Made by a program: the position numbers and the translations under genes
Part shown: positions 1 to 16,390 of the stretch, piece by piece
Layout: the number at the start of each line of letters is the position of its first letter
Position numbering within the stretch: the stretch's first letter is position 1
Notes under the pieces: generated by a model
The model's input: the letters and a program-made list of their open reading frames with translations, nothing else
The model's database searches: none
Told to the model about the DNA's origin: nothing
Assembly (NCBI GenBank): GCA_964518155.1
Contig: CAZFDH010000016.1
Coordinates: forward strand, 1 to 16,390
Length of the DNA stretch: 16,390 nt
Source: Candidatus Woesearchaeota archaeon
Lineage (GTDB): Archaea > Nanobdellota > Nanobdellia > Pacearchaeales > GW2011-AR1
Direction: 5' to 3'

Positions 1-299
1 GAACTCCTGAAGCGATAGCATCAGACGTTCAACTTTCTGAAAAAAAGAAAGACGAACCGTTTTTTACTGGAGATGTTTATAATTATTATCAGGATTTGTG
101 CGTTCGAAACAAAGTAGATGTTTTAACACAAAGAAGAGTCTCAGACATTATTCAAGAATTTGACATGTTAGGCATAATCAATGTTACAGTTATTTCTAAA
201 GGAAGAGGAGGACGAATGAGGGAGATTAAACTAGCCATTTCTAGAACAATAATAGATAAAGCTAAAGAGATAATTCAAGAATCTCTCGCTCATTTATAA
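1..299 (+). CDS. cdc6: Orc1/Cdc6 replication initiator, C-terminal winged-helix part (5' end lies upstream of the window)
   Basis: Frame 3 is open from nt 3 (TPEAIASDVQLSEKKKDEPFFTGDVYNYYQDLCVRNKVDVLTQRRVSDIIQEFDMLGIINVTVISKGRGGRMREIKL...). The LTQRRVSD..E.DMLGII...SKGRGGR.REI pattern is the classic Cdc6 C-terminal winged helix. The TTG start at 96 in the ORF track is a truncation artefact. Stop TAA 297-299 overlaps the next ATG (299-301) by 1 nt. Confidence 0.8.
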   Translation, partial: TPEAIASDVQLSEKKKDEPFFTGDVYNYYQDLCVRNKVDVLTQRRVSDIIQEFDMLGIINVTVISKGRGGRMREIKLAISRTIIDKAKEIIQESLAHL

Positions 300-1858: not shown

Positions 1859-1862
1859 AATA

Positions 1863-4800
1863 ATGGAAACTCAAGAATATTTTAAGAAACTAGAGAAAGG
1901 AGTAAGGGAAGCTTATGTTGTTGCAGAACAAGCAAGAGCAAAAGGACTTGACCCTGTGGATAAAGTTGAAATTCCTTTGGCAATGAGTATGGCTGAAAAA
2001 TGTGTCGGACTAATTAGTACAATTTATCCTCAGATGATGGGCTGCGGAATTTCTGATAGAATTTTAGCTTTGGAAAAAGAGCATGGTAAACTTGATCCGG
2101 CAGTGTGTTTACAAATCGCTGAAGAGGTTGCCAAACAAAAGTTTTGTAAATTTGCATCGCTGATGGAAGCAATCGATGCTGGTGCTAGATTAGGTTTTGC
2201 ATATATTACTTTAGGTGTTGTTTCTAGTCCAATTGAAGGATTGACTGAAATTAAAATTATGAAGACTAAAGAAGGAAAAGATTATTTTTCTCCTTGGTAT
2301 GCTGGTCCAGTAAGAAGTGCCGGAGGAACGGGGGCGGCTTTCTCATTAGTTATTGTCGATCATCTAAGAGAAATTTTTGGCTACGCAAAATATGATCCTA
2401 CAGAAGATGAAATTAAAAGAACTATTACCGAACTTAGAGATTATCATGAAAGAGTTACTAATCTACAATATTTTCCTTTAGAACAAGAAGCAGAATTTAT
2501 TGCAAGACATATACCTTTACAAGTTAATGGCGATCCATCGGAAAAATTAGAGGTATCTAATTATAAAAATCTGGAGAGGATCGAAACAAATAATATTCGA
2601 AGTGGTGTTTGTTTGACTTTGGCGGAGGGGTTAGCACAAAAAGCACCGAAAATAAAAAGATATGTTAAAGCTTTAAGAGAAAAAGGATATAAGCTTAGTG
2701 ATTGGGATTTTTTGGACGAATATGTTGAACTTCATGAGAAGCTAACCTCCTCAAAAACTAAGTCGAAAGATTCTGAAAGTGTTCCTACATATATGAAGGA
2801 TTTAGTTGCTGGCCGTCCGGTTTTTGGTCATCCTTCTAGATCTGGGGCATTCAGATTTAGATATGGTAGAGGAAGAGTCTCTGGATTTTCTGCAGCTTCA
2901 CTTCATCCAGCAACTATGGCAATCAGCGACGATTTTATTGCGACGGGTACACAACTAAAAATCGAAAAACCAACTAAAGGATGTGTTATAACCGCATGCG
3001 ATTTAATAGAGGGACCAATAGTAAAATTATTTAATGGAAGTGTAAAACAAATAAAAACAAGAGAAGAAGCCAAAAAAATCTATCCTGATGTTGAAGAAAT
3101 AATTTATATGGGAGATATTTTATTCCCCTTTAGTGATCTTGCTAACAGAAACTCTACATTAATCAAACCTGGATATGTTGAAGAATGGTGGTATCTAGAC
3201 TTGAATGAGAAAATAGAACAAAAACTAAATTATTACGATCTTAGTATTGACGAAGCGATTAAATTTTCGCAAGAATATGAAATTCCCCTTTATCCAAAGT
3301 ATATTTTTTATTGGACTCAAATTAGTTTAGATGAATTTAAAGAATTAGTTAATTGGTTGAGAAAATCTTATATTCGAGGGAAAAAAATTGTTTTGCCTTA
3401 TGGGAAGAAAGATCAAGATAAATTTGAAAAAGCAAAAAGAGCACTTGAGCTTTTAGGAGTTGAACATGAAGTTACAATTGAAAATGTTGTTCTGAGTGAG
3501 AAAAAAACTAAAGCCTTATTCTTGAATTTAGGAATTGATTTGTTTTTGATTGAAAAAGAAAATCTTCTTTTAGGAGAAGCTTGGAGCGAGTTTGAGATTG
3601 ATGAAAATAAAACTGTTCTTGAGATTGTAAATGATTTATCTAAATTTAAAATTAAAGATAAAGCAGGAGATTTTATTGGAACAAGAATGGGTCGGCCTGA
3701 AAAAGCAAAACTAAGAAAATTAACTGGTAGTCCAAACGTTTTGTTTTCGGTGGGAAATGAAGGTGGAAGATTAAGAAGTGTTCTTGAAGCGTGTAATGTC
3801 GGGAAAGTTCGTAGTTCTTTTCCTTTATTTTACTGTGAAAAATGTAATAAAGAAACAATTTATTCTTCTTGTGAAAAATGCGGAAGTAAATGCTCAAAAA
3901 GATATTATTATCGTTCAACGGGAGAAAAAAGTAATCAAAAACAAATTGGTGAAGAACACGGCTCATTTACTTTTACTTATGATTTAGATACTAAATATTA
4001 TTTGGAAGAGGCCTTGAATAGGATTGGGATGAAGAAGGAGGAATTGCCGACGCTAATTAAAGGGGTTAGAGGTATGAGTTCAGATAAAAAAATTCCTGAA
4101 AATTTAGCTAAAGGAATTTTGAGGGCAAAGCATGAACTACAAGTAAATAAAGATGGAACTATCAGATTTGACGCGACAGAACTTCCAATAGTCTCATTTA
4201 AACCAAAAGAAATTTTAGTTAGTGTTGAAAAATTAAAAGAAATCGGCTACACTCATGATGTTTATGGAGAAGAATTAACTAGAGATGATCAAATTTTAGA
4301 ACTAATGCCTCATGATGTTTTACTTCCTGCATCATATGAAAGTCCTGATGAAAGAGCAGATGCAGTATTCATTCGGGTTGCAAATTTCATCGACGATCTT
4401 TTACTCCGATTTTATGGAATTAATCCAATACATAATATTAAAACTAAAGAAGATCTCGTGGGAGTTTTAGGTGTTTGTATGGCCCCCCATAATTGTGCAG
4501 GAGTAATTTGTAGGTTTATTGGTTTTTCAAATACTCAAGGTCTTTTAGCAAGTCCGTACATGCATGCAGCAATTAGAAGAGATTGTGATGGTGATGAAGC
4601 AGCAGTAATGCTTTTATCTGATGTTTTGATAAATTTCTCGAGAGAATTTCTACCTAGTCACAGAGGGGGAACACAAGATGCACCCTTAGTTTTGAATGCT
4701 AAAATTGATGCGGGAGAAGTGGATGATCAGATTTTAGATTTTGAAATGGTTTATAGTTATCCTATTGAACTTTATCGTCTTGCGGAGGAGAGAAAACATT

Positions 4801-5333
4801 CTTCTGAAATCAAAATGAAAATTGTTAAGAGGGTTTTGAAAGAAGGAGGGAATCCTTTTGTGGGAATAGGTTTCACTCATGATACAACTAATTTTAATGA
4901 TGGTGTTGTTTGCAGCTCTTATAAAAAGTTAGCGACGATGCAAGAAAAAGTTCAACATCAAATGGAGCTTGTAGAGAAGATTAGAGCGGTTGACACTGCA
5001 GATACTGCTCGATTGATAATAGAAAGGCATTTCATAAGAGATATGAGAGGTAACTTGAGAAAGTTTTCTATGCAAGGATTTAGGTGTGTTGCTTGTAATG
5101 AATCGATTCGAAGACCACCTCTGACAGGGGTTTGTCCTGTGTGTGGAGGAAAAATCATTTTCACAATTCATGAAGGGGGAATAAAAAAATATCTTGAACC
5201 GACGCTAGATTTGATAAATAAATATAATTTGTCTCCTTACATAAAACAAAGTATCGAGATTACTAAACGTTATATTGATTCGGTTTTCGGAAAAGAACTA
5301 GAAAAACAAGAGGGATTGCAAAAGTGGTTTTAA
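1863..5333 (+). CDS. polC: DNA polymerase II (PolD) large catalytic subunit DP2
   Basis: About 1156 aa from ATG 1863; GGAAGG lies just upstream, and the TTG at 1848 in the ORF track overlaps the DP1 stop. It has the catalytic double-psi beta-barrel acidic motif RRDCDGDEAAV and Cys4 zinc modules CEKCNKETIYSSCEKCGSKC and CVACNE...CPVCGGK. The length fits an intein-free DP2. Confidence 0.95.
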   Translation: METQEYFKKLEKGVREAYVVAEQARAKGLDPVDKVEIPLAMSMAEKCVGLISTIYPQMMGCGISDRILALEKEHGKLDPAVCLQIAEEVAKQKFCKFASLMEAIDAGARLGFAYITLGVVSSPIEGLTEIKIMKTKEGKDYFSPWYAGPVRSAGGTGAAFSLVIVDHLREIFGYAKYDPTEDEIKRTITELRDYHERVTNLQYFPLEQEAEFIARHIPLQVNGDPSEKLEVSNYKNLERIETNNIRSGVCLTLAEGLAQKAPKIKRYVKALREKGYKLSDWDFLDEYVELHEKLTSSKTKSKDSESVPTYMKDLVAGRPVFGHPSRSGAFRFRYGRGRVSGFSAASLHPATMAISDDFIATGTQLKIEKPTKGCVITACDLIEGPIVKLFNGSVKQIKTREEAKKIYPDVEEIIYMGDILFPFSDLANRNSTLIKPGYVEEWWYLDLNEKIEQKLNYYDLSIDEAIKFSQEYEIPLYPKYIFYWTQISLDEFKELVNWLRKSYIRGKKIVLPYGKKDQDKFEKAKRALELLGVEHEVTIENVVLSEKKTKALFLNLGIDLFLIEKENLLLGEAWSEFEIDENKTVLEIVNDLSKFKIKDKAGDFIGTRMGRPEKAKLRKLTGSPNVLFSVGNEGGRLRSVLEACNVGKVRSSFPLFYCEKCNKETIYSSCEKCGSKCSKRYYYRSTGEKSNQKQIGEEHGSFTFTYDLDTKYYLEEALNRIGMKKEELPTLIKGVRGMSSDKKIPENLAKGILRAKHELQVNKDGTIRFDATELPIVSFKPKEILVSVEKLKEIGYTHDVYGEELTRDDQILELMPHDVLLPASYESPDERADAVFIRVANFIDDLLLRFYGINPIHNIKTKEDLVGVLGVCMAPHNCAGVICRFIGFSNTQGLLASPYMHAAIRRDCDGDEAAVMLLSDVLINFSREFLPSHRGGTQDAPLVLNAKIDAGEVDDQILDFEMVYSYPIELYRLAEERKHSSEIKMKIVKRVLKEGGNPFVGIGFTHDTTNFNDGVVCSSYKKLATMQEKVQHQMELVEKIRAVDTADTARLIIERHFIRDMRGNLRKFSMQGFRCVACNESIRRPPLTGVCPVCGGKIIFTIHEGGIKKYLEPTLDLINKYNLSPYIKQSIEITKRYIDSVFGKELEKQEGLQKWF

Positions 5334-5515
5334 TCCCAGATGAAATGATTTATTGCGGCTTCTATTGATCTTAATCTCGCTCTACGATGTTCATCAAGAG
5401 CGGGGCGAGCTTTATCTAATAAATCTTCATAAAATCTGTGATACTGTTCGGTCGTCATAAAAACTTGAGGTTCAACACCATTTGATAGACGAATTTTATA
5501 CTCGGGTGGACTCAT
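5330..5515 (-). CDS. Small hypothetical protein (61 aa), paralog B of a tandem pair
   Basis: ATG-initiated ORF. It shares a C-terminal block with the neighbouring ORF (RPALDEHRRARLRSIEAA..HF versus RPELDRLREAALRSEEAS..HF). No Cys or His clusters and no family I recognise. Its stop overlaps the DP2 stop in the sequence TTTAA (convergent). Confidence 0.55.
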   Translation of the reverse strand: MSPPEYKIRLSNGVEPQVFMTTEQYHRFYEDLLDKARPALDEHRRARLRSIEAAINHFIWD

Positions 5516-5555: not shown

Positions 5556-5741
5556 TTAATATACAAAATGATAGTGTGATGCTTCTTCTGATCTTAATGC
5601 AGCTTCTCTTAATCTATCTAGTTCTGGACGAATCCTTTCTGAGAATTCTCTTTGAAACTCTCTTGTTTCTTCCGGAGTAAATACTTTATATGGCTGAGGA
5701 CTCCCTTCAGGAAGAATTTTGAGTCCTTTTTTATATTTCAT
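5556..5741 (-). CDS. Small hypothetical protein (61 aa), paralog A of a tandem pair
   Basis: Same length and strand as 5330..5515, separated by a 40-bp AT-rich spacer. The helix-rich C-terminal block (F..EF.E.IRPELDRLREAALRSEEA) is conserved between the two. That conservation argues both are real genes. Confidence 0.55.
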   Translation of the reverse strand: MKYKKGLKILPEGSPQPYKVFTPEETREFQREFSERIRPELDRLREAALRSEEASHYHFVY

Positions 5742-5828: not shown

Positions 5829-6860
5829 ATGGGACGAGAGATTATTATTTATGGGCGAGTGCAGGGAGTTGGATTTAGAAACAGGATTAAGGAATTTTGT
5901 TTGGAGAATCACTTGAAAGGTTTTGTGAGAAATTTATCTGATGGGAGTGTTTATGTTTATTTGGACGCTAAAGAAAAAGAAGTTGAATTATTCTTGAACT
6001 GGATTAAAGAAATAAAAGGGTTTGTTAAAATAAACAATTTTGAACTGAGAGAAAAAAATTTTAAGTCAGAAGGATTTATTGTAAAAAAAGACAAAGGATT
6101 TTTGCGGGATAAACTTGAAAGCGAGATTAATTTATTAAGGTATTTTTTTGGCCTATCTTTTCCGCGAAATTATTTAAGAAAAATTCCTCAACATGTTGTA
6201 ATAATTCCTGATGGAAACCGTAGATGGGCTAAGAGAAGAGGGATGAATGAAAGTGAAGGGCACAAAAAATCTGCACAGTTTGGAAATGTAAAATCTTTAC
6301 TAAAAGAATGTAGTGACTTGGGTGTAAAAAGCTTTTCAATTTGGGGTTTTTCGACGGAAAACTGGAAAAGAAGTGAAGAAGAAAAGAAAATTCTTTTTGA
6401 TTTGATTTATTCTACTTTAGAAAAATTCCATAAAGAAATTAGTAAAAATAAAATCCGGTTCAGACATTTTGGCAGGAAAGATAGACTTCCGTCTAAGCTA
6501 GTTGAACTAATAAAGAAACTTGAAAAAGAAAGTGCAAAAAATAATGAGTTTAATTTTAATCTTCTTTTAGATTATGGGGGAAGAGATGAAATAATTAGGT
6601 CGATCGAAAAACTTTTGAATGCCAAAAAGAAAAAAATTAGTGAAGAAGAATTTTCTAAATATTTGGATAGTTATGGGGTTGAAGACCCTGATTTAATCAT
6701 AAGAACTTCTGGAGAAAAAAGAATCTCGGGGCTCATGCCTTGGCAAACAGTTTATTCTGAACTTTACTTCTGTGATAAATTTTTCCCTTCATTTAACAAA
6801 AATGATTTAAGAAAAGCAGTTTTTGAATACGACGGACGAGAAAGAAGACTTGGAAAATAA
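5829..6860 (+). CDS. uppS: Fusion protein: N-terminal acylphosphatase domain plus C-terminal cis-prenyltransferase (undecaprenyl/di-trans,poly-cis-polyprenyl diphosphate synthase, UppS family)
   Basis: Residues 1 to about 90, IIIYGRVQGVGFRNRIKEFCLENHLKGFVRNLSDGSVYVYLDA..., match the acylphosphatase signatures (V.G.VQGVGFR and G.V.N..DGSV). Residues from about 120 carry the UppS motifs HVVIIPDGNRRWAKRRG, FSTENWKRS and IIRTSGEKRISGLMPWQTVYSELYF. It is one uninterrupted 343-codon frame. Confidence 0.85.
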   Translation: MGREIIIYGRVQGVGFRNRIKEFCLENHLKGFVRNLSDGSVYVYLDAKEKEVELFLNWIKEIKGFVKINNFELREKNFKSEGFIVKKDKGFLRDKLESEINLLRYFFGLSFPRNYLRKIPQHVVIIPDGNRRWAKRRGMNESEGHKKSAQFGNVKSLLKECSDLGVKSFSIWGFSTENWKRSEEEKKILFDLIYSTLEKFHKEISKNKIRFRHFGRKDRLPSKLVELIKKLEKESAKNNEFNFNLLLDYGGRDEIIRSIEKLLNAKKKKISEEEFSKYLDSYGVEDPDLIIRTSGEKRISGLMPWQTVYSELYFCDKFFPSFNKNDLRKAVFEYDGRERRLGK

Positions 6861-8048
6861 TTATAGTGTGAGATAAAAAATAATCGTAGGTAATAGAAGA
6901 CATCCCATCATATTTGTTCTTTTTACTTTTGAAGTTATAGAGTAAATCCCGGTAAAGGTTGAGATTATGAGGACTAAGATCCCGATAATTCCTGAAACTA
7001 ATAGAGTAATTAAGAATATCACAAATAATGTTGTAAATGAAATCTTTGTATAATTAATTTTACTAATGTTTATTGAAAAAAATTTTGCCAGAATTGAAGT
7101 TAGAAAAAAAGAGATTACCCCGGTTATTAAAACCGCAGTTAAAATTAAAATCAAAGTCGGGAAGTTTAATTCTCCTACTAATTCCTGGATTGCAACTGCT
7201 GCACCTGTTCGCGTTTTCGAAATAAGGAAAAGTGAAAGGAAGGAAAAACCCATCACAATTGTGTTAGTTATTCCGAGCAAAACTAAAAATTCTTCTTTGT
7301 CGTTTTTTACGAGCGTGTTTCCTATAACTGCTGCTTGACCTGAACCAAGGCCAGGAAGAAAACCACACAAAGGAGAAGCAATTAAAGAACTGATTATAGG
7401 TTTCTTCAGTTTGAGTGAAGGAGGGGTGATTATTTGAGGAGGAATTTTAGTTTTTTCTTTTATACTTAGGATTATTCCGGAAGCTCCGAACAAACCAGTA
7501 AGCAAAGGCAAAAGCGGCTCGTTTATTTGAATGTTTAGAACGATCAAACCAAGAACTCCGGTCAATGAAAATACTATTAAAGCTTGAAATTTGTTTTGCT
7601 CGGTGAGGATTAAGATTAGAGAAGTTGCAATCAAAATATATCCAATGAAAGGAGTTATATTCTGATAAATTTTTGGAAAGAAAACTATAGAGACGGGTGA
7701 CAAAACGACTAAAAGAAAAATTGAAATTAAACTTCCGTAATTGGTAAACATTATTGCTTCATATGCGCGACCTTCTTTTAGAAGAGAATGGCCTGGAAGG
7801 GTTGAAAGTTCGGTGTCTGTGTCAGGCGCACCCAGAAGAATTGAAGGAATAAAGTCGATGAAAGTATGAGTTATTGCCATCGATGAAATTAAGACGACGA
7901 GATAAATTGGATTTAGTTTTGAGAGAAATGCTACGGATGAAGAAACTAAAAAAACTCCTACAAGGTTTGTATGTATTCCCGGAGTTAGGCCTGTAAAGAC
8001 CCCGGCGGTCACACCGCAGACCAAAGCGATGAAAAGCTCAAATATCAT
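6861..8048 (-). CDS. Polytopic membrane protein, probably TctA/DUF112-family (COG1784-like) transporter subunit
   Basis: 395 aa and almost entirely hydrophobic, with roughly 10 or more predicted TM segments. It has two G(L/F)xPG motifs (FTGLTPGIHTN and CGFLPGLGSGQAAV) reminiscent of TctA-family repeats. The family assignment comes from memory of the motif, not from a search. Confidence 0.6.
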   Translation of the reverse strand: MIFELFIALVCGVTAGVFTGLTPGIHTNLVGVFLVSSSVAFLSKLNPIYLVVLISSMAITHTFIDFIPSILLGAPDTDTELSTLPGHSLLKEGRAYEAIMFTNYGSLISIFLLVVLSPVSIVFFPKIYQNITPFIGYILIATSLILILTEQNKFQALIVFSLTGVLGLIVLNIQINEPLLPLLTGLFGASGIILSIKEKTKIPPQIITPPSLKLKKPIISSLIASPLCGFLPGLGSGQAAVIGNTLVKNDKEEFLVLLGITNTIVMGFSFLSLFLISKTRTGAAVAIQELVGELNFPTLILILTAVLITGVISFFLTSILAKFFSINISKINYTKISFTTLFVIFLITLLVSGIIGILVLIISTFTGIYSITSKVKRTNMMGCLLLPTIIFYLTL

Positions 8049-8210
8049 CGCTATACGCCTTATTCTCCCCTTTCTAAGTTATTGAAATGATTTAAACCTT
8101 TTTGTGAGTGTGGTTTAATATACTCTTTTTCCATTTTGCTTATCTCTCTTTGTTTTTCCGTCGCTGTTGTTTACTATTCTGGAAAGTTTTTTTGTGTAAT
8201 TTTATTGGGT

Positions 8211-8654
8211 TTAGGATTCATTGGACGTCTTGACTTGTTTTTTATCTATTTTGATGACTGGAAATTTGAGGCTCCCCCAAGAGATTGTAATTTCTTGTGG
8301 TTCTTGTGAAGAAGTTATCATGACTGGTCGTCCCTTTACCCTTTCTTTTTTTTCTAGTTTGATTAATCCCGCTTCTTCTAATACTTTCAGATGAAACAAA
8401 AAAGATTTGTAATCTAATTGATTTTTTTTAGAGCGCTTCTTATTTATATCTTCTTGAAGTTTCGAGATATTAATTTCCTTTTCTTCATTCTTCACTATGT
8501 AGCATAATATATCTAATCTCAAATCATTTGCTAAAAGTTTTAACAATATACGTCCCTCTTCCTCTGTCGATTCACCCGCAATTCCTATTGATACCTTCCT
8601 CTGAATACTAAATTTAATCTTTTTCAATCGTTCTCTCCAATTTTCTCTCGGCAT
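8211..8654 (-). CDS. Winged-helix (ArsR/PadR-like) DNA-binding protein
   Basis: 147 aa. The core LRLDILCYIVKNEEKEINISKLQEDI...FLFHLKVLEEAGLIKLEKKERVKGRP has the helix-turn-helix plus wing layout of ArsR-type regulators. It is transcribed divergently from the RHH operon. Confidence 0.6.
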   Translation of the reverse strand: MPRENWRERLKKIKFSIQRKVSIGIAGESTEEEGRILLKLLANDLRLDILCYIVKNEEKEINISKLQEDINKKRSKKNQLDYKSFLFHLKVLEEAGLIKLEKKERVKGRPVMITSSQEPQEITISWGSLKFPVIKIDKKQVKTSNES

Positions 8655-8668
8655 TATAAGAAATAAAG

Positions 8669-8728
8669 TCCCTTAATAGTTATAAATCTATCGAAATATT
8701 CTTTATGGGAATTGACTTCCCTTAATAG
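8669..8728. promoter_or_regulatory. Two direct copies of TCCCTTAATAG (8669-8679 and 8718-8728) in the divergent ArsR-like / RHH promoter region
   Basis: Exact 11-bp direct repeat, 49 bp start to start, inside the 134-bp intergenic region 8655-8788, which also has several TATA-like tracts (TATAAAT, TTTATATATA). This is a candidate operator or recombinase half-site. A third copy, GTCCCTTAAT, lies at 11157-11166. Confidence 0.35.
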
Positions 8729-8788
8729 AAAGATTTATATATACTAATTACTCTAAATATATTATAGGAGTTTAATTCATATAATAAA

Positions 8789-8920
8789 ATGGAAGTGATG
8801 ATATTCAAAATCCCTAAGGAAATGAAAGAACAGTTAGACAAATTAGCGACGAAAGAAGAGAGAACTAAAGCTTATTTTATCAGAAAAGCCATAGAGAAAT
8901 TTTTGGAGGGCAGAAAATGA
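8789..8920 (+). CDS. Ribbon-helix-helix (CopG/Arc-like) protein, 43 aa; not in the supplied ORF track
   Basis: My own translation is MEVMIFKIPKEMKEQLDKLATKEERTKAYFIRKAIEKFLEGRK*. It has the beta-strand / helix / helix RHH pattern (IFKIPKE - MKEQLDKLA - RTKAYFIRKAIEKFL). Stop TGA 8918-8920 overlaps ATG 8917 of the next gene (ATGA coupling). Confidence 0.6.
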   Translation: MEVMIFKIPKEMKEQLDKLATKEERTKAYFIRKAIEKFLEGRK

Positions 8921-9147
8921 GTAACCAAACTTTCTTAATCTGGAATGAAAAAAGTAATTCTCTTATTCAGCTTAAATGTCCTGAATCTATAAAACGGCGG
9001 ATAAAAGCGTTGGCTAAATCAGAAGGGAAGACCGTGACTTCTTATATGCTTGAAAAATCTTTGAACGAGTTGTCTCAAGAAATGAAGCTAAATAAAATAA
9101 TAGAATTGTTGGAGAAGGAGAAAAATGAAAATAATAAAGGACGCTGA
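8917..9147 (+). CDS. Second ribbon-helix-helix protein (76 aa)
   Basis: LIQLKCPESIKRRIKALAKSEGKTVTSYMLEKSLNEL fits the RHH pattern, with a charged, helical C-terminal tail. It overlaps both the upstream RHH gene (4 nt) and the downstream AAA+ gene (23 nt). Confidence 0.6.
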   Translation: MSNQTFLIWNEKSNSLIQLKCPESIKRRIKALAKSEGKTVTSYMLEKSLNELSQEMKLNKIIELLEKEKNENNKGR

Positions 9148-10222
9148 AAAACTTAGAAGCAATTATATTCCAGATAAATTATTATTTCGGGAAGATTTGA
9201 TTAGAGACATCAATCTGAAAATAAAAATCGGAACTGGAAATATGTTCTTGCAGGGAGATACTGGAACCGGTAAGACAGCTAGCGTAATGAAAGCAATAGA
9301 AAAAATTGATAACGTTCTCATTGTTTTCATAAATTGTTCTAGGTATGATACGTATACTTCTGTTGGAATGAAGATAATAGAATCTATTAAAACAACTTCT
9401 ATAAGGCCAACTGGAAGAATACGAGCAGGAATTTCTGAGGAATTGGCAAAAGTGTTAACCACAAAAAGAAAAAAGAAAATAGTTTTTATCTTTGATGAAG
9501 TGGATAAATTAATCAATAAAGAAAGAGACCATCAACAAATTTTTAATCCAATTGTAGAATCTACAAATAGTAACATTATTTTAATTTCTAATGAACCCAC
9601 CGCATTAAATAAATTAGATGCAAGACTTATAAGCAGATTATCTCCTGAAAAAAGATTTGTTCCAAAATATTTCTTTGATGAAATGTTTGAGATACTCAAA
9701 CATCGGGCGAAAATCGGTTTAGTTTCAAAGAATTATGATGTTGAAGCAATAGCAAAAATATCCAGATGGATTTTTAAAACAACTGGTGATATAAGGGAGG
9801 CATTAAATCTCTTATACGAAATTTCTTGTTTAGCTGAAAAAAATAAATGTAGGTTAACTGTCGAACTCTTTGAGGAGGCGAAAAATAGGGTAGAAGATAT
9901 GGAATTTGATGAGGCTTTTGCTTATCTTCCAACTCAACAACAATTAATAATGGCCTCAATAGCAAAAATTGCGATAAAAGAAATTGAAAATTATGCAGAC
10001 AGTACAGAAGTCTATAACTTTTACTCACAATGTGCTAGAGATAATAGCGAGCCGGTTTTACTTCAAAGGCAATTTGAAAGATTACTTCAAAAACTGATTT
10101 TCAGAAAGTTAATCGAGACTGGGACTAAAAGCCCAAAAGGCAGGAGGGGAAAAATGTTCGTTTATTATCCAAAATTTGATACTAGGAGGTTTATGGAAAA
10201 ATATTGGCCAAAGTATAGCTAA
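9125..10222 (+). CDS. Divergent Orc1/Cdc6-like AAA+ ATPase with C-terminal winged helix (probable element-encoded replication initiator)
   Basis: 365 aa. N-terminal YIPDKLLFREDLIRDI matches the Orc1 P..L.gRE.E pattern. Other motifs are Walker A GDTGTGKTA, Walker B VFIFDEVDKL, sensor-1 IILISNEP and SRL. The C-terminal wing KSPKGRRGKMFVYY parallels SKGRGGRMREIKL of the chromosomal Orc1 at nt 1-299. GGAG lies upstream of the ATG. Confidence 0.8.
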   Translation: MKIIKDAEKLRSNYIPDKLLFREDLIRDINLKIKIGTGNMFLQGDTGTGKTASVMKAIEKIDNVLIVFINCSRYDTYTSVGMKIIESIKTTSIRPTGRIRAGISEELAKVLTTKRKKKIVFIFDEVDKLINKERDHQQIFNPIVESTNSNIILISNEPTALNKLDARLISRLSPEKRFVPKYFFDEMFEILKHRAKIGLVSKNYDVEAIAKISRWIFKTTGDIREALNLLYEISCLAEKNKCRLTVELFEEAKNRVEDMEFDEAFAYLPTQQQLIMASIAKIAIKEIENYADSTEVYNFYSQCARDNSEPVLLQRQFERLLQKLIFRKLIETGTKSPKGRRGKMFVYYPKFDTRRFMEKYWPKYS

Positions 10223-10271
10223 TAACCGTCAACACAAGTCATTGTAGTTATTGTGTGTGATGTCGGTTATT
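10221..10271. repeat. Nested imperfect inverted repeat (outer arms AATAACCG / CGGTTATT, inner arms ACACAA / TTGTGT)
   Basis: The sequence is AATAACCGTCAACACAA-gtcattgtagtta-TTGTGTGTGATGTCGGTTATT. It starts at the last base of the Orc1-like stop codon and lies about 30 bp upstream of the recombinase operon. Function unknown (terminator hairpin, res/crossover site or initiator-binding site). Confidence 0.55.
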
Positions 10272-10300
10272 AGTATTAATTGAAAGGAGGTAAAAAGAAG

Positions 10301-10480
10301 ATGAGCAATAATAAATTGGAAGCAGGCGAGAAATATCTGTCTATAAAGATAGTCGGACACGAATACATTAATGTGTTCAAGAACAAAAATAAAAAATCAG
10401 ATAAAGAGCCAGACTATTCAAGCAATGGGGTCGGTGTTTGGGTTAGGACAAAAAAATCAAAGGAGGAAGAAGATATTTAG
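10301..10480 (+). CDS. Small hypothetical protein (59 aa), translationally coupled to the serine recombinase
   Basis: ATG 10301 is preceded by AAGGAGG (10284-10290) at canonical spacing, so I prefer it to the TTG at 10280. Stop TAG 10478-10480 abuts ATG 10481. Lys-rich. The segment KSDKEPDYSSNGVGVWVRTKK is noted under findings. Confidence 0.5.
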   Translation: MSNNKLEAGEKYLSIKIVGHEYINVFKNKNKKSDKEPDYSSNGVGVWVRTKKSKEEEDI

Positions 10481-11143
10481 ATGAAAGAGACTGTAATTTA
10501 TCTTAGAACTTCGACAGAAGAACAAAATCCAGAGAATCAATTAAAGGATTGTGAAGAGTTGGCCGGAAGACTTGGATTGAAAGAATACGATGTATTTCCT
10601 GAGAAGAAGTCTGCCTTCAAAGATAATGTAGAGAGGGCAGTTTTTAACTCGATTAGGTTGGCTATTCAAGAAAAGAAAATAAAGAATTTGATTGTATGGG
10701 ATTTAGACAGGCTTTATAGAAATAGATTAAAGACTGTTGATTTTATAAGAAACTCTTCTAAACTTGGTTTAAACATATATTCTTTTAGACAATCTTGGTT
10801 TGAAGATATAAAGAGAATACCCGAACCCTTTAATGAAATAATGAACGATTTAATGTTGCAGGTTATTTCTTGGATTGCGGAAGAAGAAAGTAAAAAGAAA
10901 AGTGAGAGAGTTAAATCTGCCGTTCGTAGAGAAGATGGAAATACTTTTTCATATAAGGGAAATAAATGGGGCAGAAAAAACATCGTAAACAAAGATGTTC
11001 TTAGGGATGTTTTATTTTTTTATGATAGCGGTATGTCTATAAGAGAAATATCTAAAGAAGTTTTTTATTATGATAAGAATAGAAATAAGAAGAATATCTC
11101 AAAGAGTGTTGTTCATAAAATTATTTTAGAACACAGAAGATAA
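10481..11143 (+). CDS. Small serine recombinase (resolvase/invertase family) with C-terminal HTH
   Basis: 220 aa. VIYLRTSTEEQ carries the catalytic Ser in the Y.R.S...Q motif. LIVWDLDRLYRN is the DRL.R motif and AEEESKKKSERVK the E-helix SER motif. The C-terminal GMSIREISKEV...KSVVHKII is the HTH. AGGAGG lies 15 nt upstream. Confidence 0.9.
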   Translation: MKETVIYLRTSTEEQNPENQLKDCEELAGRLGLKEYDVFPEKKSAFKDNVERAVFNSIRLAIQEKKIKNLIVWDLDRLYRNRLKTVDFIRNSSKLGLNIYSFRQSWFEDIKRIPEPFNEIMNDLMLQVISWIAEEESKKKSERVKSAVRREDGNTFSYKGNKWGRKNIVNKDVLRDVLFFYDSGMSIREISKEVFYYDKNRNKKNISKSVVHKIILEHRR

Positions 11144-11161
11144 TTTACTTTAGAGTGTCCC

Positions 11162-11177
11162 TTAATTGGTCAATTAA
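11162..11177. repeat. 7-2-7 palindrome TTAATTG-GT-CAATTAA, 19 bp after the recombinase stop
   Basis: Perfect 7-bp inverted arms surround an asymmetric GT dinucleotide. The palindrome overlaps the third GTCCCTTAAT copy (11157-11166). This geometry resembles a serine-recombinase crossover site, but the element is AT-rich and short, so it could be chance or a terminator. Confidence 0.35.
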
Positions 11178-11372
11178 AAAATAGCTATTAAACGAGTTAT
11201 TTACTGGGAAAAAATCGAAAAGGGATTTATGGACACTTACGGACAGTTTGACTATAAAAGGACGGTGTCATAGGTGCTTGTGCTGTAATGCTTCCAGAAG
11301 CAGTAACTACACTGCTACTTGGGGTTTCCTGTGTAAAAACTTCAACCACATAATCTTATACCTCAATTAATT

Positions 11373-11585
11373 TTATCTGTTTAAAGTGAAAAGTCTTTCT
11401 GGCTTATATGTTTGTTTTCCCAACCTTTCTTTAACCATCCCTTCTTTCTTCATAAACTCCAAAGCCTTAATTGTTGTTTCCCACTGGGAGCCTATTTTCT
11501 CTGAAATAGCCTTAACAGACAGTTCCTCGTTTCTCAAAACCTTCTTTATAGCAGTTATAACTTCAAGTATGTTCCTTCTTGACAT
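11373..11585 (-). CDS. Small winged-helix DNA-binding protein (70 aa), probable autoregulator
   Basis: MSRRNILEVITAIKKVLRNEELSVKAISEKIGSQWETTIKALEFMKKEGMVKERLGK... is a typical minimal wHTH, with recognition helix SQWETTIKALEFM and a wing after it. The start codon abuts an operator-like site. I prefer it to the overlapping + strand ORF 11386..11628, which is low-complexity and hydrophobic. Confidence 0.65.
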   Translation of the reverse strand: MSRRNILEVITAIKKVLRNEELSVKAISEKIGSQWETTIKALEFMKKEGMVKERLGKQTYKPERLFTLNR

Positions 11586-11639
11586 CTGTATAAAAGCACA
11601 GATATTCTTAAATATCGCAACTGTGTAATTACACAGATA
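11586..11639. promoter_or_regulatory. Bidirectional promoter: two CTGT-N8-ACAGATA sites flanking one TATA-like element
   Basis: Site 1 is CTGTATAAAAGCACAGATA (11586-11604). Site 2 is CTGTGTAATTACACAGATA (11621-11639), whose first 16 bp are a perfect palindrome. The TTCTTAAATATC tract between them lies about 25-35 bp from both divergent start codons (11585 on the minus strand, 11645 on the plus strand). That spacing is consistent with leaderless or short-leader archaeal transcripts. Confidence 0.5.
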
Positions 11640-11644
11640 GCAAA

Positions 11645-11875
11645 ATGGGAATAATTAAAAAACTCTGGAAGGCAATGGATGACACTCCGGAAGAGAAAGC
11701 TCTAATAAAAAGTCAGATTCTTGCAACTCAAATAGCTAATCAACAAAGAGAAATGATGACCTGTAAGAATTGTAAGAAGATATTTAGTGAAGGGTACCCT
11801 TATCAAAGGTATTTATTTGGGAAGGTTAAGAATTATGTTTGTAAGGACTGTGCTAAAAAATTAAAGTTGATTTAG
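11645..11875 (+). CDS. Small zinc-ribbon protein (76 aa), function unknown
   Basis: It has a CxxC...CxxC pair (CKNCKKIF...VCKDCAKKL) after a helical N-terminus. It is transcribed divergently from the wHTH gene and lies upstream of the 352-aa membrane protein. Confidence 0.55.
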   Translation: MGIIKKLWKAMDDTPEEKALIKSQILATQIANQQREMMTCKNCKKIFSEGYPYQRYLFGKVKNYVCKDCAKKLKLI

Positions 11876-11933
11876 GTTCAATAATTTAAATTTCTCTGGA
11901 AAAGTCTATTAAGTTAAAAATATCCAAAGAGTT

Positions 11934-12992
11934 ATGAGAAAAATAGACTTTGGAAAGATAAGCGATTACTTTCTAATCAGCTTGGTTTCGATTGTTTCTA
12001 TTGCTCTAATAATTTTGGAATATTTCCAAGTTCATCGACTTATCTCTCTGGCAGTTGCCATTTTATCTCTTTTAATAATTTTAATTAAGGAAATAAGAGA
12101 GAAAAACAAAGACAGCATAGAAGAAGCAGAAAGAAAACTTACAGATGAGAGAATTATAATAATAGAAAGAGAAGTCACAAAGAAAAATGTTGAGTTGGAA
12201 GACAGGCAAAAAATAATATCTGAATTTTTAAGTGAAGGAATTATTAGAGAAGAGGATTTAATTAAAAGTCTTAATCAAGAACCATTTGTTATATTGTATC
12301 ATTATAATCGTGGAATAAAGCAAGAACTACTCCAGTATTTTCCAGATAAGAAAAAACCAATAAATAAAATCTTAAATGATTTGGGATTTGTTCCTGTGGG
12401 ATTTGCTCACGGTTCTTATTTTTTCCATGTTATTGGTGCTAAGTTTCTTCCTAGACCTTTAGATGATGTTACATATTTAGAGGCATATATAAAAAAGAAA
12501 ATGAGAAATTCATTTAAGAATATCTTATTGAACTTACAAAAAAATAATCCAGAACTTTATAATAAAACCAAAGATAAAAAATTGTTTAATCTAAGTTATT
12601 TTATTGGAAAGATTTTTCCTGCACATTTGAGTGTGGGATATGTTAATTTTTCTTCATTTGATAGAGAGTTTACTTCATATTATTCTAAGTTTAGCAATCT
12701 TAATAAAATGCAAATAAATGAACAAAAGTTAAACGAGATTTTAAAATTGGCCTCATTGAAGATTTTTATTAAACAAATTCCTCCAAAAGATAGAGAAAAA
12801 ATAATCTCGAAAGAAGACGCAATAAAACAAGAATTTTCTATAAATAATTTATTAGACTATCAAACCCTCTCTTTAGAATCTTGGACTAGAGCTTTATCTA
12901 AAATACTCAAAAATGATAAGGCCTCTGTTTATGCCAAAGTAATAAGAAATTCAACACAAAGATATTGTCCAATAATTAGAGAATTTATTTGA
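11934..12992 (+). CDS. Uncharacterised membrane-anchored protein (352 aa): 2 N-terminal TM helices, a charged coiled segment and an unknown C-terminal domain
   Basis: The TM helices are YFLISLVSIVSIALIILEYF and LISLAVAILSLLIILI. Next comes KEIREKNKDSIEEAERKLTDERIIIIEREVTKKNVELEDRQK, then about 250 aa with no motif I recognise. The long ATG-initiated ORF has no competing frame. Its 3' end overlaps the res 3' end by 8 nt (convergent). Confidence 0.65.
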   Translation: MRKIDFGKISDYFLISLVSIVSIALIILEYFQVHRLISLAVAILSLLIILIKEIREKNKDSIEEAERKLTDERIIIIEREVTKKNVELEDRQKIISEFLSEGIIREEDLIKSLNQEPFVILYHYNRGIKQELLQYFPDKKKPINKILNDLGFVPVGFAHGSYFFHVIGAKFLPRPLDDVTYLEAYIKKKMRNSFKNILLNLQKNNPELYNKTKDKKLFNLSYFIGKIFPAHLSVGYVNFSSFDREFTSYYSKFSNLNKMQINEQKLNEILKLASLKIFIKQIPPKDREKIISKEDAIKQEFSINNLLDYQTLSLESWTRALSKILKNDKASVYAKVIRNSTQRYCPIIREFI

Positions 12993-15174
12993 AAGACAAG
13001 AACTTCCAACTTTCGCCTAATTTGTTCTCATTGAAAGAATAATCCTTTCCTTCGTGGTATCTACAACTGCCTTCCTTGAAAACAACAATTCCACCCCATA
13101 ACTTCTTTTTGTATTTCTTGCTATGTTCTTCAATGTGTTTGGCTAAGGCCTCCGCTTTCTCTTTTGCGTCTTCTGCTGTTCTTCCAGACTTAGTATCGAA
13201 TAGCCCTATACTTCCATCTTCCATTACTACAATAAAGTCTACATAGAAGGCTCTTTCAACTCCGTATTTGTCCGCATATTTGACTGCAAAGTATTTCTTT
13301 TCGGACTCTCCATTCTTGAACCACCATAAAACTTTATTCTTGCTTTCTAACAATTCAACAAAATCTTTTTCTGGCTGACTTCCTGACTTTTCAAAGTTAG
13401 GCTTCATAATAGATTTTTTGTAATCTACTGGCTTGTATCTTGAATTGAAACTTATAGATTCTGGAACATTCCAAACAGTATGTTCTGTTTCTCTTTTTTC
13501 AGAAAGTTCTTTTACAACTTTAAGACTATAATCTTCTTTTGCTTTGTTTACATAGTCTGTAATTAATTGGTTATTCTCCTCTCCCAAAATTATCTCTTGT
13601 ATCTTTGTGTAGTCTGAGATTTTAAGAGTCTCCTCAAAGAATTTATACAATGCAGTTTTTATTCTACCACTAGAGTCTGCTGGAGCGAATGGAGAACAAA
13701 CAGAACGAATATACAAATCAAACCGATATTGAAGTTCTTTTTCAGTAATCTTAATTTTTATTTCTCCGCCATGTTTTACAACTTGCACTTCATCTAATTT
13801 TTCTACTCTTCCATCCACCATTATAGCATTTACTAATTTTGTTGGTTGTAAATTAATCTTAGTGTGTATCCTGTCTTTCTTTGCTATGTCTAAAAATATC
13901 TTTGAAAATTTACCAGAGAGTCTAGTCTTTTCTCTTTGTCTCTTAAGATAAACTGATTGTAAATCTATGTTTTTGTATTCTTTTTTTCTTCTGGCCTCAT
14001 AAACGGTAATATAATCTTTCGCAATATCTTCGGCAATTTCAACATCTGAAAGATTTGTGAAAACATAGCCTTTGTTTAATTCTTCTGTGTCGTAATGCTT
14101 AAATTCCGGCATTCTCATAATTCTGCCGATTGTTTGGATTGAGAACACAATGCTTTTCCAATCTCTAAATAAAACTAGAATTGAACTTCTCGGACAATCC
14201 CAACCTAATGCTATGGCCTGTTTGAAGATTAAGACTTCTGTTTCATTATCTAATTTTTCTATATTCTCTAAGTTTACTTTATTGTCTTTTTCTGATAAAT
14301 AAATTGCGAGTTTACGATTCTCTATTGTTATCTTGAATTTGTCTTTTAGAGTTTTAATTATATCTTCTTTTTTATCTATCACTCCTGCTTTGGCGTCGGG
14401 CAACTGGATTAAGACTAGGGGATTAATATTAGAACCCTCTTTTTTATAGGCCTTAACTAATTCTTCTCTTTTCTTTAAAGCACATTCTATAATAAATTCA
14501 TCTGTGCTTTTACCATTAATTGTCTCTTTGTCTATCCCTAAATTTATAGCAACTTCTTTCTTTATCATTCCTTCGTCTTTAACTGCTTGAAAGTCTACTT
14601 CGACAATTCTTGATACTTCTCTAATTTGTGGAGTTGCTGAAACTTCAATAGTCACTTTAGGAGCGATGTCTCTTATTACTTCTTTTGATTTTTCCGCTTT
14701 TGCTGTGTGATGGCTTTCATCAATCACTAGAATAATTTCTCGGCCTTCATCTTTTGTATTTGAAACAACATTTGACAAGTTATTGTCTTGTTCATTTTCT
14801 CTAATGAAAATATTTCCACTTTTGTTTATACTTTGCCAATTAAAGAATAATATCTCATTCTTCCCAATCTTCTTATCTTCTAGGTCTTCAAAATCAGAAC
14901 ATTTTAGGACTCGACTATCTTCGTAATATTGTTCTAACTTATCTTTACTTTGGTCGTGCAACTGATTAACTGAAATCCAAATAAACGAAAGGTCGTTTTT
15001 GTATTTTCTTTCTGTAACTAATCTCTTTAAGGCCTCTGCAAGCATTAAAGTTTTTCCTGAACCTGTCGGAGCCTTGAAAACACAAATCTTATTTTCAGAA
15101 GATTCTAGTAACTCTATTGTTTCTGACTTTAACTTTTCTATTGCTTTGTCTTGGTAATCTTTTAATTCAATCAT
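12985..15174 (-). CDS. res: Type III restriction enzyme Res subunit (SF2 helicase-like ATPase plus C-terminal PD-(D/E)xK nuclease)
   Basis: The helicase motifs are FKAPTGSGKT (I), LVIDESHH (II), SATP (III) and QTIGRIMR (VI). The C-terminal YVDFIVVMEDGSIGLFDTKSG fits D...(D/E)xK. The likely start is MIELKDYQ at ATG 15174, which overlaps the mod stop (15167-15169) by 8 nt as ATGATTGA. The ORF-track start at 15222 is a non-ATG extension. Confidence 0.85.
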   Translation of the reverse strand: MIELKDYQDKAIEKLKSETIELLESSENKICVFKAPTGSGKTLMLAEALKRLVTERKYKNDLSFIWISVNQLHDQSKDKLEQYYEDSRVLKCSDFEDLEDKKIGKNEILFFNWQSINKSGNIFIRENEQDNNLSNVVSNTKDEGREIILVIDESHHTAKAEKSKEVIRDIAPKVTIEVSATPQIREVSRIVEVDFQAVKDEGMIKKEVAINLGIDKETINGKSTDEFIIECALKKREELVKAYKKEGSNINPLVLIQLPDAKAGVIDKKEDIIKTLKDKFKITIENRKLAIYLSEKDNKVNLENIEKLDNETEVLIFKQAIALGWDCPRSSILVLFRDWKSIVFSIQTIGRIMRMPEFKHYDTEELNKGYVFTNLSDVEIAEDIAKDYITVYEARRKKEYKNIDLQSVYLKRQREKTRLSGKFSKIFLDIAKKDRIHTKINLQPTKLVNAIMVDGRVEKLDEVQVVKHGGEIKIKITEKELQYRFDLYIRSVCSPFAPADSSGRIKTALYKFFEETLKISDYTKIQEIILGEENNQLITDYVNKAKEDYSLKVVKELSEKRETEHTVWNVPESISFNSRYKPVDYKKSIMKPNFEKSGSQPEKDFVELLESKNKVLWWFKNGESEKKYFAVKYADKYGVERAFYVDFIVVMEDGSIGLFDTKSGRTAEDAKEKAEALAKHIEEHSKKYKKKLWGGIVVFKEGSCRYHEGKDYSFNENKLGESWKFLSFK

Positions 15175-16390
15175 CTTTGAACACTCTCCTGTAAACGTGA
15201 AGTATTGCTTCTGGAATAGCACATAGTTTTGCTTTTCCTTTTAGTTCTTTAAACTCTTGTTCTGGCACACTATCGTCTAAAGAGAAAACATAAACGTTTA
15301 TTTTGTCTTTTAGTTTTTTTGCTTCTTTAACAAAGTCTTCTATATTTTCTTCATCGAAGATAATCCCTAAATAATGGTCAGTATTCTTGAATATTTTATA
15401 ACTTGTTTTTTCTACTATCGGCTCAAAAGCATTTTCCTTAATACAAATCATTTCTGTTGATTTATCAACTATCTTCTTTTTGTTTTGGTCGGTTGGTGCT
15501 GAGTCCACAAAATCAGTTTTGAAATATTTTAAGTTTCCGCTTAAACCTTCTATCTTTTCTTTTGTAGGAGTAGTGTAGCCTTTGATTACTTTCTCAACTC
15601 TGGGATAACATACTCCGGAACAAATATTTTCTTCATTATTCGTGCATAAAATAAACTTTCTATTTCCACCATAAAGTTTGTTATATTCTAATACTGCGTG
15701 GCCTGTAGTTCCAGAGCCCGCAAAGAAATCAAGAACTATGGAGTCTTCCTTTGTAGATAATTCAAGAATTTTCATAATTAGACTAATTGGTTTAGGATTG
15801 TTGAAAACTTTCTCACCAAATATCTCTTCTAATTCTTGAGTTCCATTAGTGGTTGTTCCCACATCGTCCCAAATAGATTTTGAAACAAGCCCTCTATCCT
15901 CGCATTCGCTTAAATACCTCTTTAATTGTGGTTTTGAATTACCAGTTTTCCCAAATATTATTCTTCCTTCTTTTAAAAATCTCTGAAATTCTTCTTTTGT
16001 TGTTCTCCAACATCTTCCTTTTGGAGGCATATAAATTTCTCCAGTCTTAGGGTTTTTTATTGGATAAGTTAAATTAGGTCTTATGTTTGGTGCATCGAAT
16101 GGGTCTGCAGTCCAATCTCCACGAGGGTCTTTATCTGGATTTGAAAACTTCTCTCCATTGGCCTTAAGTCTAAATTCCTTTTTTATTTTTTGTAGTTTGC
16201 TGATATTTTTAGCATATAGAAATGTGTGATTATGATTTAAAGATATTATTGCGTCATTGGATACGGATTTTCTCGAATTCCATATTACATCAATTATAAA
16301 ATTTTTCTCTCCAAAAACTTCATCACATAATATCTTTAGTTGGGCGAATTCATTGTCATCTATAGAAATAAATATGACTCCACTCTCCAC
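15167..16390 (-). CDS. mod: Type III (beta-class N6-adenine/N4-cytosine) DNA methyltransferase Mod subunit, N-terminus beyond the right edge
   Basis: ESGVIFISIDDNEFAQLKILCDEVFGEKNFI is the conserved block that follows the (off-window) DPPY motif in Type III Mod proteins. LDFFAGSGTTGHAV is the AdoMet-binding motif I, placed late as in beta-class enzymes, and a variable region lies between the two. The mod-res order with overlap is typical of Type III operons. Confidence 0.88.
   Translation of the reverse strand: MESGVIFISIDDNEFAQLKILCDEVFGEKNFIIDVIWNSRKSVSNDAIISLNHNHTFLYAKNISKLQKIKKEFRLKANGEKFSNPDKDPRGDWTADPFDAPNIRPNLTYPIKNPKTGEIYMPPKGRCWRTTKEEFQRFLKEGRIIFGKTGNSKPQLKRYLSECEDRGLVSKSIWDDVGTTTNGTQELEEIFGEKVFNNPKPISLIMKILELSTKEDSIVLDFFAGSGTTGHAVLEYNKLYGGNRKFILCTNNEENICSGVCYPRVEKVIKGYTTPTKEKIEGLSGNLKYFKTDFVDSAPTDQNKKKIVDKSTEMICIKENAFEPIVEKTSYKIFKNTDHYLGIIFDEENIEDFVKEAKKLKDKINVYVFSLDDSVPEQEFKELKGKAKLCAIPEAILHVYRRVFKDD

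Follow-up and report, generated by a model that had tools for sequence, protein, structure and literature searches.

The window analysed here is a 16,390-nt stretch of chromosomal DNA (contig CAZFDH010000016.1) of low GC content (~31%) from a DPANN-type archaeon. Near its right end, directly ahead of a convergent Type III restriction-modification (R-M) operon, lies a region of three genes: a 70-aa winged helix-turn-helix (wHTH) gene on the minus strand (11373-11585), a 76-aa zinc-ribbon gene diverging from it on the plus strand (11645-11875), and a 352-aa membrane-protein gene, also on the plus strand (11934-12992), which belongs to a rare, uncharacterized archaeal family. An earlier note on this DNA, which had claimed these three open reading frames (ORFs), all of them present, proposed that they form one regulator-sensor-effector cassette. 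That unit does not hold, since in 11 distinct contexts no homolog of the 352-aa protein comes with the zinc-ribbon or wHTH gene; the region is three evolutionarily independent units and not one system. The 352-aa gene is a solo, horizontally mobile accessory gene that is found beside integrases and transposases and in R-M and defense islands, with no fixed partner.

A membrane-anchored protein of a rare archaeal family

The 352-aa protein begins with a transmembrane (TM) hairpin (nt 11967-12089, plus strand, like the segments that follow) of two hydrophobic helices, residues 12-28 and 36-52, split by a 7-residue loop. After it come a charged stalk helix (residues 55-100, nt 12096-12233; 52% charged) and a C-terminal part of about 250 residues without a family match, much as the earlier note had described. 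Two TM helices are called for 54 of 76 family members, with a mean loop of 7.8 aa. Lys and Arg residues average 2.3 before the first helix, 0.6 in the loop of about 8 residues and 3.2 in the 15 residues after the second helix. By the positive-inside rule these counts favor an N-in/C-in topology for the family, and the soluble module would therefore be cytoplasmic.

An AlphaFold2 model built with a 23-sequence alignment (pLDDT 82, pTM 0.72; pLDDT 83 for a domain-only model) has helices at residues 6-30 and 35-68 that make the hairpin and continue as a long stalk to about residue 100. Beyond the stalk, the model divides into a ferredoxin-like beta-alpha-beta-beta-alpha-beta subdomain (about residues 115-230, nt 12276-12623) and an all-helical subdomain (about residues 240-351, nt 12651-12986). 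Foldseek comparison of the model with the PDB and BFVD gave no match at E < 0.001. The weak matches are generic ferredoxin-like modules, namely IS200 TnpA, Cas2, cyclase or palm domains, Prim-Pol and NisB, and the predicted central subdomain has the same order of strands and helices as the HUH/Y1 transposases (IS200/IS605 TnpA), Cas2 and ferredoxin-like folds. The best of these matches, to TnpA (2f4f and 2ec2; probability 0.5-0.57), Cas2, cyclase/palm domains and Prim-Pol, all have E values of 0.014 or higher. An HUH nuclease was considered and rejected: the family has neither an HUH motif nor a conserved Tyr, H123 and H165 vary across its members, and for the HUH superfamily Foldseek gives E >= 0.19 and a target TM score of at most 0.38.

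Across the 76 diverse members, nearly every conserved position is hydrophobic. Conservation of 90% or more is confined to G151, F152 and E294, and S274, K298, D308 and Y309 reach 76-87%; the two His residues, H123 and H165, are invariant in the close subfamily and give way in the wider family to C/T/V and F/Y, respectively. No catalytic residue is conserved across the 76 members, which makes an enzymatic role unlikely, and no toxin-like or enzymatic motif was found in the 352-aa protein. The soluble part of the family is basic, with a median isoelectric point (pI) of 9.3.

The family is small. There are 23 close homologs, all full length and 38-59% identical, and a profile search of 1.84 billion representatives returned 97 family proteins at E <= 0.001, nearly all of 340-400 aa, each standing for a cluster at 50% identity. 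Such a sparse distribution, 97 clusters among 1.84 billion representatives, is not housekeeping-like. Wider scans of IMG/VR, GTDB genomes and JGI metagenomes gave just a few extra loci; no member of the family was found in IMG/VR, nor by tblastn in phage (INPHARED) and plasmid (PLSDB) records. Scans of the 352-aa protein and 76 family members against Pfam, PADLOC, PHROGs and NCBIfam yielded no consistent match. The protein itself matched no family in PADLOC-DB 2.0.0 at E up to 0.1 and no PHROG significantly, and searches of the PDB by single sequence and by profile returned nothing meaningful. The earlier note had named homology to a housekeeping or structural family as an outcome that would count against it; none appeared in Pfam, PADLOC, PHROGs, NCBIfam or the PDB, and the PADLOC check that it called for likewise gave no model matching the protein. 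Judged by sequence comparison, the family is uncharacterized, has no detectable relatives and stands outside the known defense families.

The gene is preceded by a 58-nt spacer (11876-11933, plus strand), read directly from the sequence, with an A/T-rich TATA-like box at about 11880-11893. A similar AAATTAAAT box lies 30-45 nt upstream of the homologs at two other loci (L001 and L018; such handles denote loci fetched for comparison). Since the box, TTAAAT in the window, recurs at those loci behind differing upstream genes, the 352-aa gene probably has its own promoter. No oligo-T or terminator-like site was found in the spacer, so read-through from the zinc-ribbon gene may occur, and no operator motif of the wHTH type (CTGT-N8-ACAG, described below) lies upstream of the 352-aa gene. 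Its GC content, 26.9%, is the lowest of all genes in the window, against 30-35% for the others. At its 3' end the ORF overlaps the convergent res ORF by 8 nt (12985-12992), as previously claimed. The homolog in L001, the closest on a long contig (58% identity), also overlaps a convergent gene, an unannotated one of 219 aa, by exactly 8 nt (3737-3744).

Genomic contexts of the family gene

Eleven distinct contexts of the family, the window included, were compared. In 8 of them the family gene has a recombinase or transposase no more than about three genes away. Tyrosine integrases are found in L001, L002, L006, L008-L010, L015 and L016, together with IS110 in L006, and the window's own recombinase is of the serine type. 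At L006 and L008-L010 a tRNA-Ala gene comes first, then the integrase and then the family gene. The 3' end of the tRNA-Ala(CGC) gene of L006 is duplicated 46 nt downstream (5133-5159 and 5179-5205), beside the tyrosine integrase, and the duplication identifies the site, which bears the family gene, as an integration hotspot that has been in use. A transposase gene of the IS240/IS6 type precedes the family gene in L007 (6761-7927), at a distance of about 73 bp, and stands directly upstream of it in L020 (3323-4489), and the same transposase has decayed into three small ORFs in L002 (7389-7929); this transposase and the family gene may move together. A compact block in L016 (113-3243) consists of a tyrosine integrase, a 55-aa gene, a 212-aa wHTH protein that is HVO_A0114-like or CasR-like, and a distant family member whose gene overlaps that of the wHTH protein by 4 nt; housekeeping genes follow directly, and the block may be a minimal integrated element.

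R-M or other defense genes, of five different kinds, are adjacent or near in 6 of the 11 contexts. The window has its adjoining Type III R-M system. The richest set, in L004, comprises a HaeIII-like restriction enzyme, a C5 methyltransferase (MTase), Vsr, a DpdB-like protein, a GajB-like UvrD-PD-(D/E)xK helicase, a PLD-helicase and PemK; here the C5 MTase gene ends 33 nt upstream of the family gene on the same strand, and there is no recombinase within 8 kb. In L006 and L008 the family gene is upstream of a 295-aa gene and an N6_N4 MTase gene, followed in L006 by a GajB-like helicase. L007 and L020 have an N6_Mtase near the family gene. L015 combines Type I HsdR with a PLD nuclease gene that stops 10 nt short of the family gene. 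In L018, a 380-aa reverse transcriptase (961-2103) ends 4 nt ahead of the family ORF; it scores 6.5e-23 with RVT_1 and 6.7e-51 with the PADLOC RT model, followed by the DRT/UG models.

The earlier note had expected the 352-aa gene to be enriched in defense or mobile contexts, and the counts of 8/11 for recombinases or transposases and 6/11 for R-M or defense genes bear this out as a rough judgement. By the same rough judgement, these neighbor frequencies are well above chance even with a generous assumed background, for a sample that is small and partly non-independent. All-against-all neighbor BLAST of the 11 contexts found no recurrent partner of the family gene. A conserved partner gene was considered for the 185-219-aa neighbors in L001, L014, L016 and L017 and rejected, as these are mutually unrelated. 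Nor does a CD-NTase, SMODS, SLOG, cyclase or other nucleotide-signal enzyme adjoin the family gene in any of the 11 contexts, the sole SMODS match being part of a CCA-adding enzyme gene beside the tRNA-Ala gene in L006.

Possible roles of the 352-aa protein

We tentatively read the 352-aa gene as encoding an autonomous, mobile, membrane-tethered sensor/effector that acts in abortive infection or exclusion, a statement that, taken whole, has somewhat less than an even chance of being right. The protein would be anchored in the membrane by its N-in/C-in hairpin, and its basic, non-enzymatic cytoplasmic module (ferredoxin-like plus helical) would sense an invader cue, either nucleic acid or protein. 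The stalk helix would then relay the signal to oligomerization of the hairpin, and the oligomers would either compromise the membrane (abortive infection) or block the entry or establishment of foreign DNA (exclusion). That the protein itself has an immune mechanism is possible, if doubtful. It is similarly doubtful that it founds a new archaea-specific, DPANN-centered family of single-gene, membrane-tethered immune or exclusion proteins, with a combination of sensor folds not in the PDB, that spreads horizontally, as a gene complete in itself, between integrases and R-M islands. The earlier suggestion of a candidate defense module thus survives for this one gene, uncharacterized and in a mobile and defense context, and falls for the three-gene unit.

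Several points weigh against the sensor/effector reading. Oligomerization of the hairpin, or pore formation, is itself a proposal. Association by context cannot on its own tell a defense gene from other cargo of variable islands; there are only 11 contexts, some of them related (L006 with L008, and L002 with L007), and in two, L014 and L017, the family gene adjoins ribosomal-protein operons, and SecY too, with no recombinase or defense gene in view, both loci lying near contig ends. The ferredoxin-like assignment is drawn from the strand order given by DSSP and from Foldseek matches, none of them significant (best E 0.014, query TM score at most 0.28), and the high pI may be an effect of an AT-rich proteome. 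Moreover, if the zinc-ribbon and 352-aa genes are co-transcribed, the host wHTH protein would control the 352-aa gene in this genome.

The strongest of the rival explanations is that the protein serves the mobile element, either by tethering its DNA, replication or partition machinery to the membrane or in transfer via cell contact or vesicles. The integrase or transposase neighbors in 8 of 11 contexts speak for such a role, as do the minimal block of L016 (integrase, 55-aa gene, wHTH, family gene), the primase-bearing element of L001, and a basic cytoplasmic domain with a predicted fold common to DNA-binding HUH, Cas2 and RRM modules. However, searches of IMG/VR and of phage and plasmid records found no family member, PHROGs gave no match, and the L004 defense island has no recombinase within 8 kb. 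The accompanying elements also vary (tyrosine integrase, serine recombinase, IS110, IS6-like), which argues that the family gene is not core to any single element family, and we consider an element role unlikely.

A role as an accessory factor of R-M, for example in its membrane localization or regulation, is less probable still. In its favor are the tight co-directional spacings in L004 (33 nt after the C5 MTase) and L015 (10 nt after the PLD nuclease), the position upstream of the 295-aa and MTase genes in L006 and L008, and the 8-nt overlap with res in the window. The partner R-M systems are nonetheless of five unrelated types, which disfavors a specific partnership, and about 5 of the 11 contexts have no R-M gene nearby. 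We give an equally low standing to the possibility that this is an ordinary host membrane protein, with a part in the envelope or physiology and none in genetic conflict, whose neighborhood reflects the plasticity of DPANN genomes. The ribosomal-protein and SecY neighbors in L014 and L017 and the lack of any toxin-like or enzymatic motif among those sought fit that idea, but for a housekeeping gene the family is extremely thinly spread, synteny is not conserved, recombinases, insertion sequences and defense genes recur nearby, and within the window the gene stands out by its GC content.

As a putative sensor/effector, the 352-aa protein resembles the SLATT/2TM effectors, the CBASS proteins Cap14 and Cap15, the Pycsar TM effectors and RexB-like proteins in its N-terminal TM hairpin and non-enzymatic cytoplasmic module, its location in defense islands or on mobile genetic elements, and its single-gene form. 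It differs in that the SLATT_1 profile is matched by only 2 of 76 family members (best E 0.067), neither of them the window protein; PADLOC gives no match and no nucleotide-signal generator was seen in the 11 contexts; and its cytoplasmic domain has no recognizable relative. Superinfection-exclusion membrane proteins of mobile elements (for example Sie, Imm or Sp-type proteins of phages) belong to bacteria and are carried by phages. The likeness there is that of a small membrane-anchored protein beside the integration module of an integrated element; there is no homology, and none of the viral collections searched yielded a member of the 352-aa family.

A TM-anchored, single-gene defense candidate found by context is of a well-known kind; the 352-aa family itself is unannotated. 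DPANN archaea have tiny genomes and few recognized defense systems, and they are reported to be rich in compact single-gene defense candidates (PMC12988326). Like the single-gene PDCs of PADLOC described there, the 352-aa gene is a compact candidate from small-genome symbiotic archaea found by genomic context only, but its family is much rarer and matches no PDC model in PADLOC-DB 2.0.0. If the sensor/effector reading is true, a new membrane-anchored family would extend an archaeal immune repertoire of which little is known and offer a definite gene for testing.

The wHTH locus, the zinc-ribbon gene and flanking genes

The wHTH gene and its promoter are a conserved host autoregulator locus of Nanoarchaeota and Pacearchaeota and not specific to a cassette. 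On its own, the 70-aa protein matches Pfam wHTH families below threshold (TrmB, HTH_24 and HTH_45 at E of about 0.005-0.009, with HTH_45 at 0.009). At the level of its family the wHTH assignment made earlier is sound, with HTH_45 matched by 16 of 30 members (best 1.6e-6). Its homologs form at least 120 clusters, 55-80% identical and every one 70-73 aa long, from Nanoarchaeota, Pacearchaeota and unclassified archaeal metagenome-assembled genomes, some on contigs of 100-350 kb; mean column identity in a 30-protein alignment is 67%. None was found in IMG/VR. On the closest long contig, L024, the wHTH protein is 80% identical and its gene lies among those for eIF-2beta, eIF-1A, KH/PNO1, DUF424 and FtsZ. 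The protein is probably a core autoregulated transcription factor of small Nanoarchaeota and Pacearchaeota genomes. A CasR/Csa3-type, CRISPR-associated regulator was also considered and rejected: only the C-terminal wHTH part of those models aligns (E 5e-5), and the protein, at 70 aa, has no CARF domain.

The 59-bp divergent promoter/operator region (11586-11644) holds two palindromes of the form CTGT-N8-ACAG, CTGTATAAAAGCACAG (11586-11601) and CTGTGTAATTACACAG (11621-11636), placed symmetrically about a central TATA-like box, TTAAATAT (11608-11615), that is common to both divergent genes and lies ~21-29 nt from each start codon. The motif occurs twice in the window, both times in this region, against 0.08 expected. 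The spacing suggests the roles of TATA box and operator, and it would fit archaeal promoters with an operator between TATA and start and with both genes leaderless or nearly so. The wHTH protein would then repress both divergent transcripts, the palindromes between the TATA-like box and each start serving to block recruitment of the polymerase. The entire spacer, including both palindromes, is kept with the wHTH gene in L024 and L025 (the unit spans 11373-11644 in the window and 9944-10213 in L024), and at both loci the divergent partner is an unrelated 79-aa gene, whose product in L024 is a coiled-coil protein. Because the promoter is conserved with the wHTH gene while facing an unrelated gene, it belongs to the host autoregulator and not to a cassette. 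By blastn, homology between the window and L024 covers only 11403-11639, at ~74% nucleotide identity; it ends 6 nt ahead of the zinc-ribbon start codon and, on the other side, within the last 30 nt of the wHTH gene. The protein is like other small archaeal wHTH autoregulators (HTH_45, TrmB-like, F-93-like) in its length of ~70 aa, its one winged helix and the palindromic operators that overlap its own promoter, and it is unlike them in being a highly conserved chromosomal gene and not an element-borne repressor. The wHTH gene and its operator pair may merit study of their own as a conserved Nanoarchaeota/Pacearchaeota regulatory unit.

The zinc-ribbon gene, in contrast to its divergent neighbor, is a lineage-specific ORFan: among 5.8 billion clusters the 76-aa protein matched only itself. 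Its cysteines are arranged as C40xxC43-X22-C66xxC69, all zinc-ribbon profile matches are below threshold, and metal binding is a prediction; against PADLOC-DB 2.0.0 there was only a spurious match to PglX (E 0.029). The frame is coding-like, at +0.24 bit per codon, whereas the five remaining frames score -0.37 to -0.51. The cysteines, palindromes and TATA-like box thus match the earlier picture of a CxxC..CxxC protein diverging from the wHTH gene at a tight promoter. The gene begins where synteny with the wHTH locus of its relatives stops, and therefore came under the wHTH promoter. The earlier note's alternative, that these are plasmid or virus orphan genes, suits the zinc-ribbon gene.

By tblastn, the zinc-ribbon protein has no match at homolog loci L001-L010, the wHTH protein, searched against all 26 fetched loci, has none at those carrying 352-aa homologs, and the wHTH gene occurs in L024 without the other two. 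A single three-gene defense or maintenance cassette, inherited and working as a unit, is accordingly very improbable: the genes are adjacent, two of them diverge from a common palindromic promoter, no terminator separates the zinc-ribbon gene from the 352-aa gene, and a different 212-aa wHTH gene overlaps the distant family member in L016 by 4 nt, but neither small gene occurs at any homolog locus and one is an ORFan, the wHTH gene keeps its promoter in a housekeeping locus where the facing gene is unrelated, the L016 wHTH protein has no similarity to that of the window, and the 352-aa gene has no operator motif upstream. A tidy layout of regulator and effector can, as this region cautions, arise by chance insertion beside a conserved host regulator.

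The window's content is accessory from ~8.2 kb onward, where an ArsR-like HTH gene, an operon with Orc1/Cdc6 and recombinase genes, the three-gene region and the Type III mod-res pair follow one another. The R-M neighbor named earlier is confirmed, with a Res helicase-nuclease (12985-15222; ResIII 7e-23 in Pfam, REase_III 4e-18 in PADLOC) and a Mod beta-class N6/N4 MTase, cut by the end of the window (15167-16390; N6_N4_Mtase 2.7e-23 in Pfam, MTase_III 5.5e-78 in PADLOC), adjacent in one minus-strand operon. Read from the translation, the true res start is likely the ATG at 15174, 4 nt past the mod stop.

On the opposite side of the wHTH gene from the zinc-ribbon and 352-aa genes stands an operon-like block (8917-11143) of a ribbon-helix-helix (RHH) gene that overlaps the next gene by 23 nt, a divergent Orc1/Cdc6-like gene, a 66-aa gene (p66, 10280-10480) and, last, the serine recombinase gene (10481-11143, plus strand; Resolvase 5.7e-24). 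Because p66 resembles an ORF (6951-7118, 55% identical) that belongs to the L001 element with its primase and integrase, the block may be a second, separate mobile module across the host wHTH gene. Between the ArsR-like HTH gene and this operon is a 26-nt direct repeat (8654-8679 and 8703-8728; 77% identical, 49-nt spacing) that could be iteron-like or origin-recognition-box-like, and an 18-nt inverted repeat (10219-10236 and 10256-10273; 89% complementary, 19-nt spacer) lies directly past the Orc1/Cdc6 stop, ahead of the 66-aa gene. The window yielded neither a tRNA nor an att site, and 7900-16390 no convincing element-bounding direct repeats. An Rfam search of the window gave no match, and the 229-bp spacer at 11144-11372 has no excess of RNA structure (z 0.7 and 0.0).

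At the other end of the window, genes in 299-5333 encode both PolD subunits. Between the gene for the DP2 subunit and the next large gene are two tandem paralogous 61-aa ORFs on the minus strand (5330-5515 and 5556-5741), without a match in Pfam. Beyond them, an undecaprenyl-diphosphate synthase (5829-6860; E 2e-69) carries an N-terminal acylphosphatase domain (E 6e-17) as a fusion, and a TctA-type transporter gene follows.

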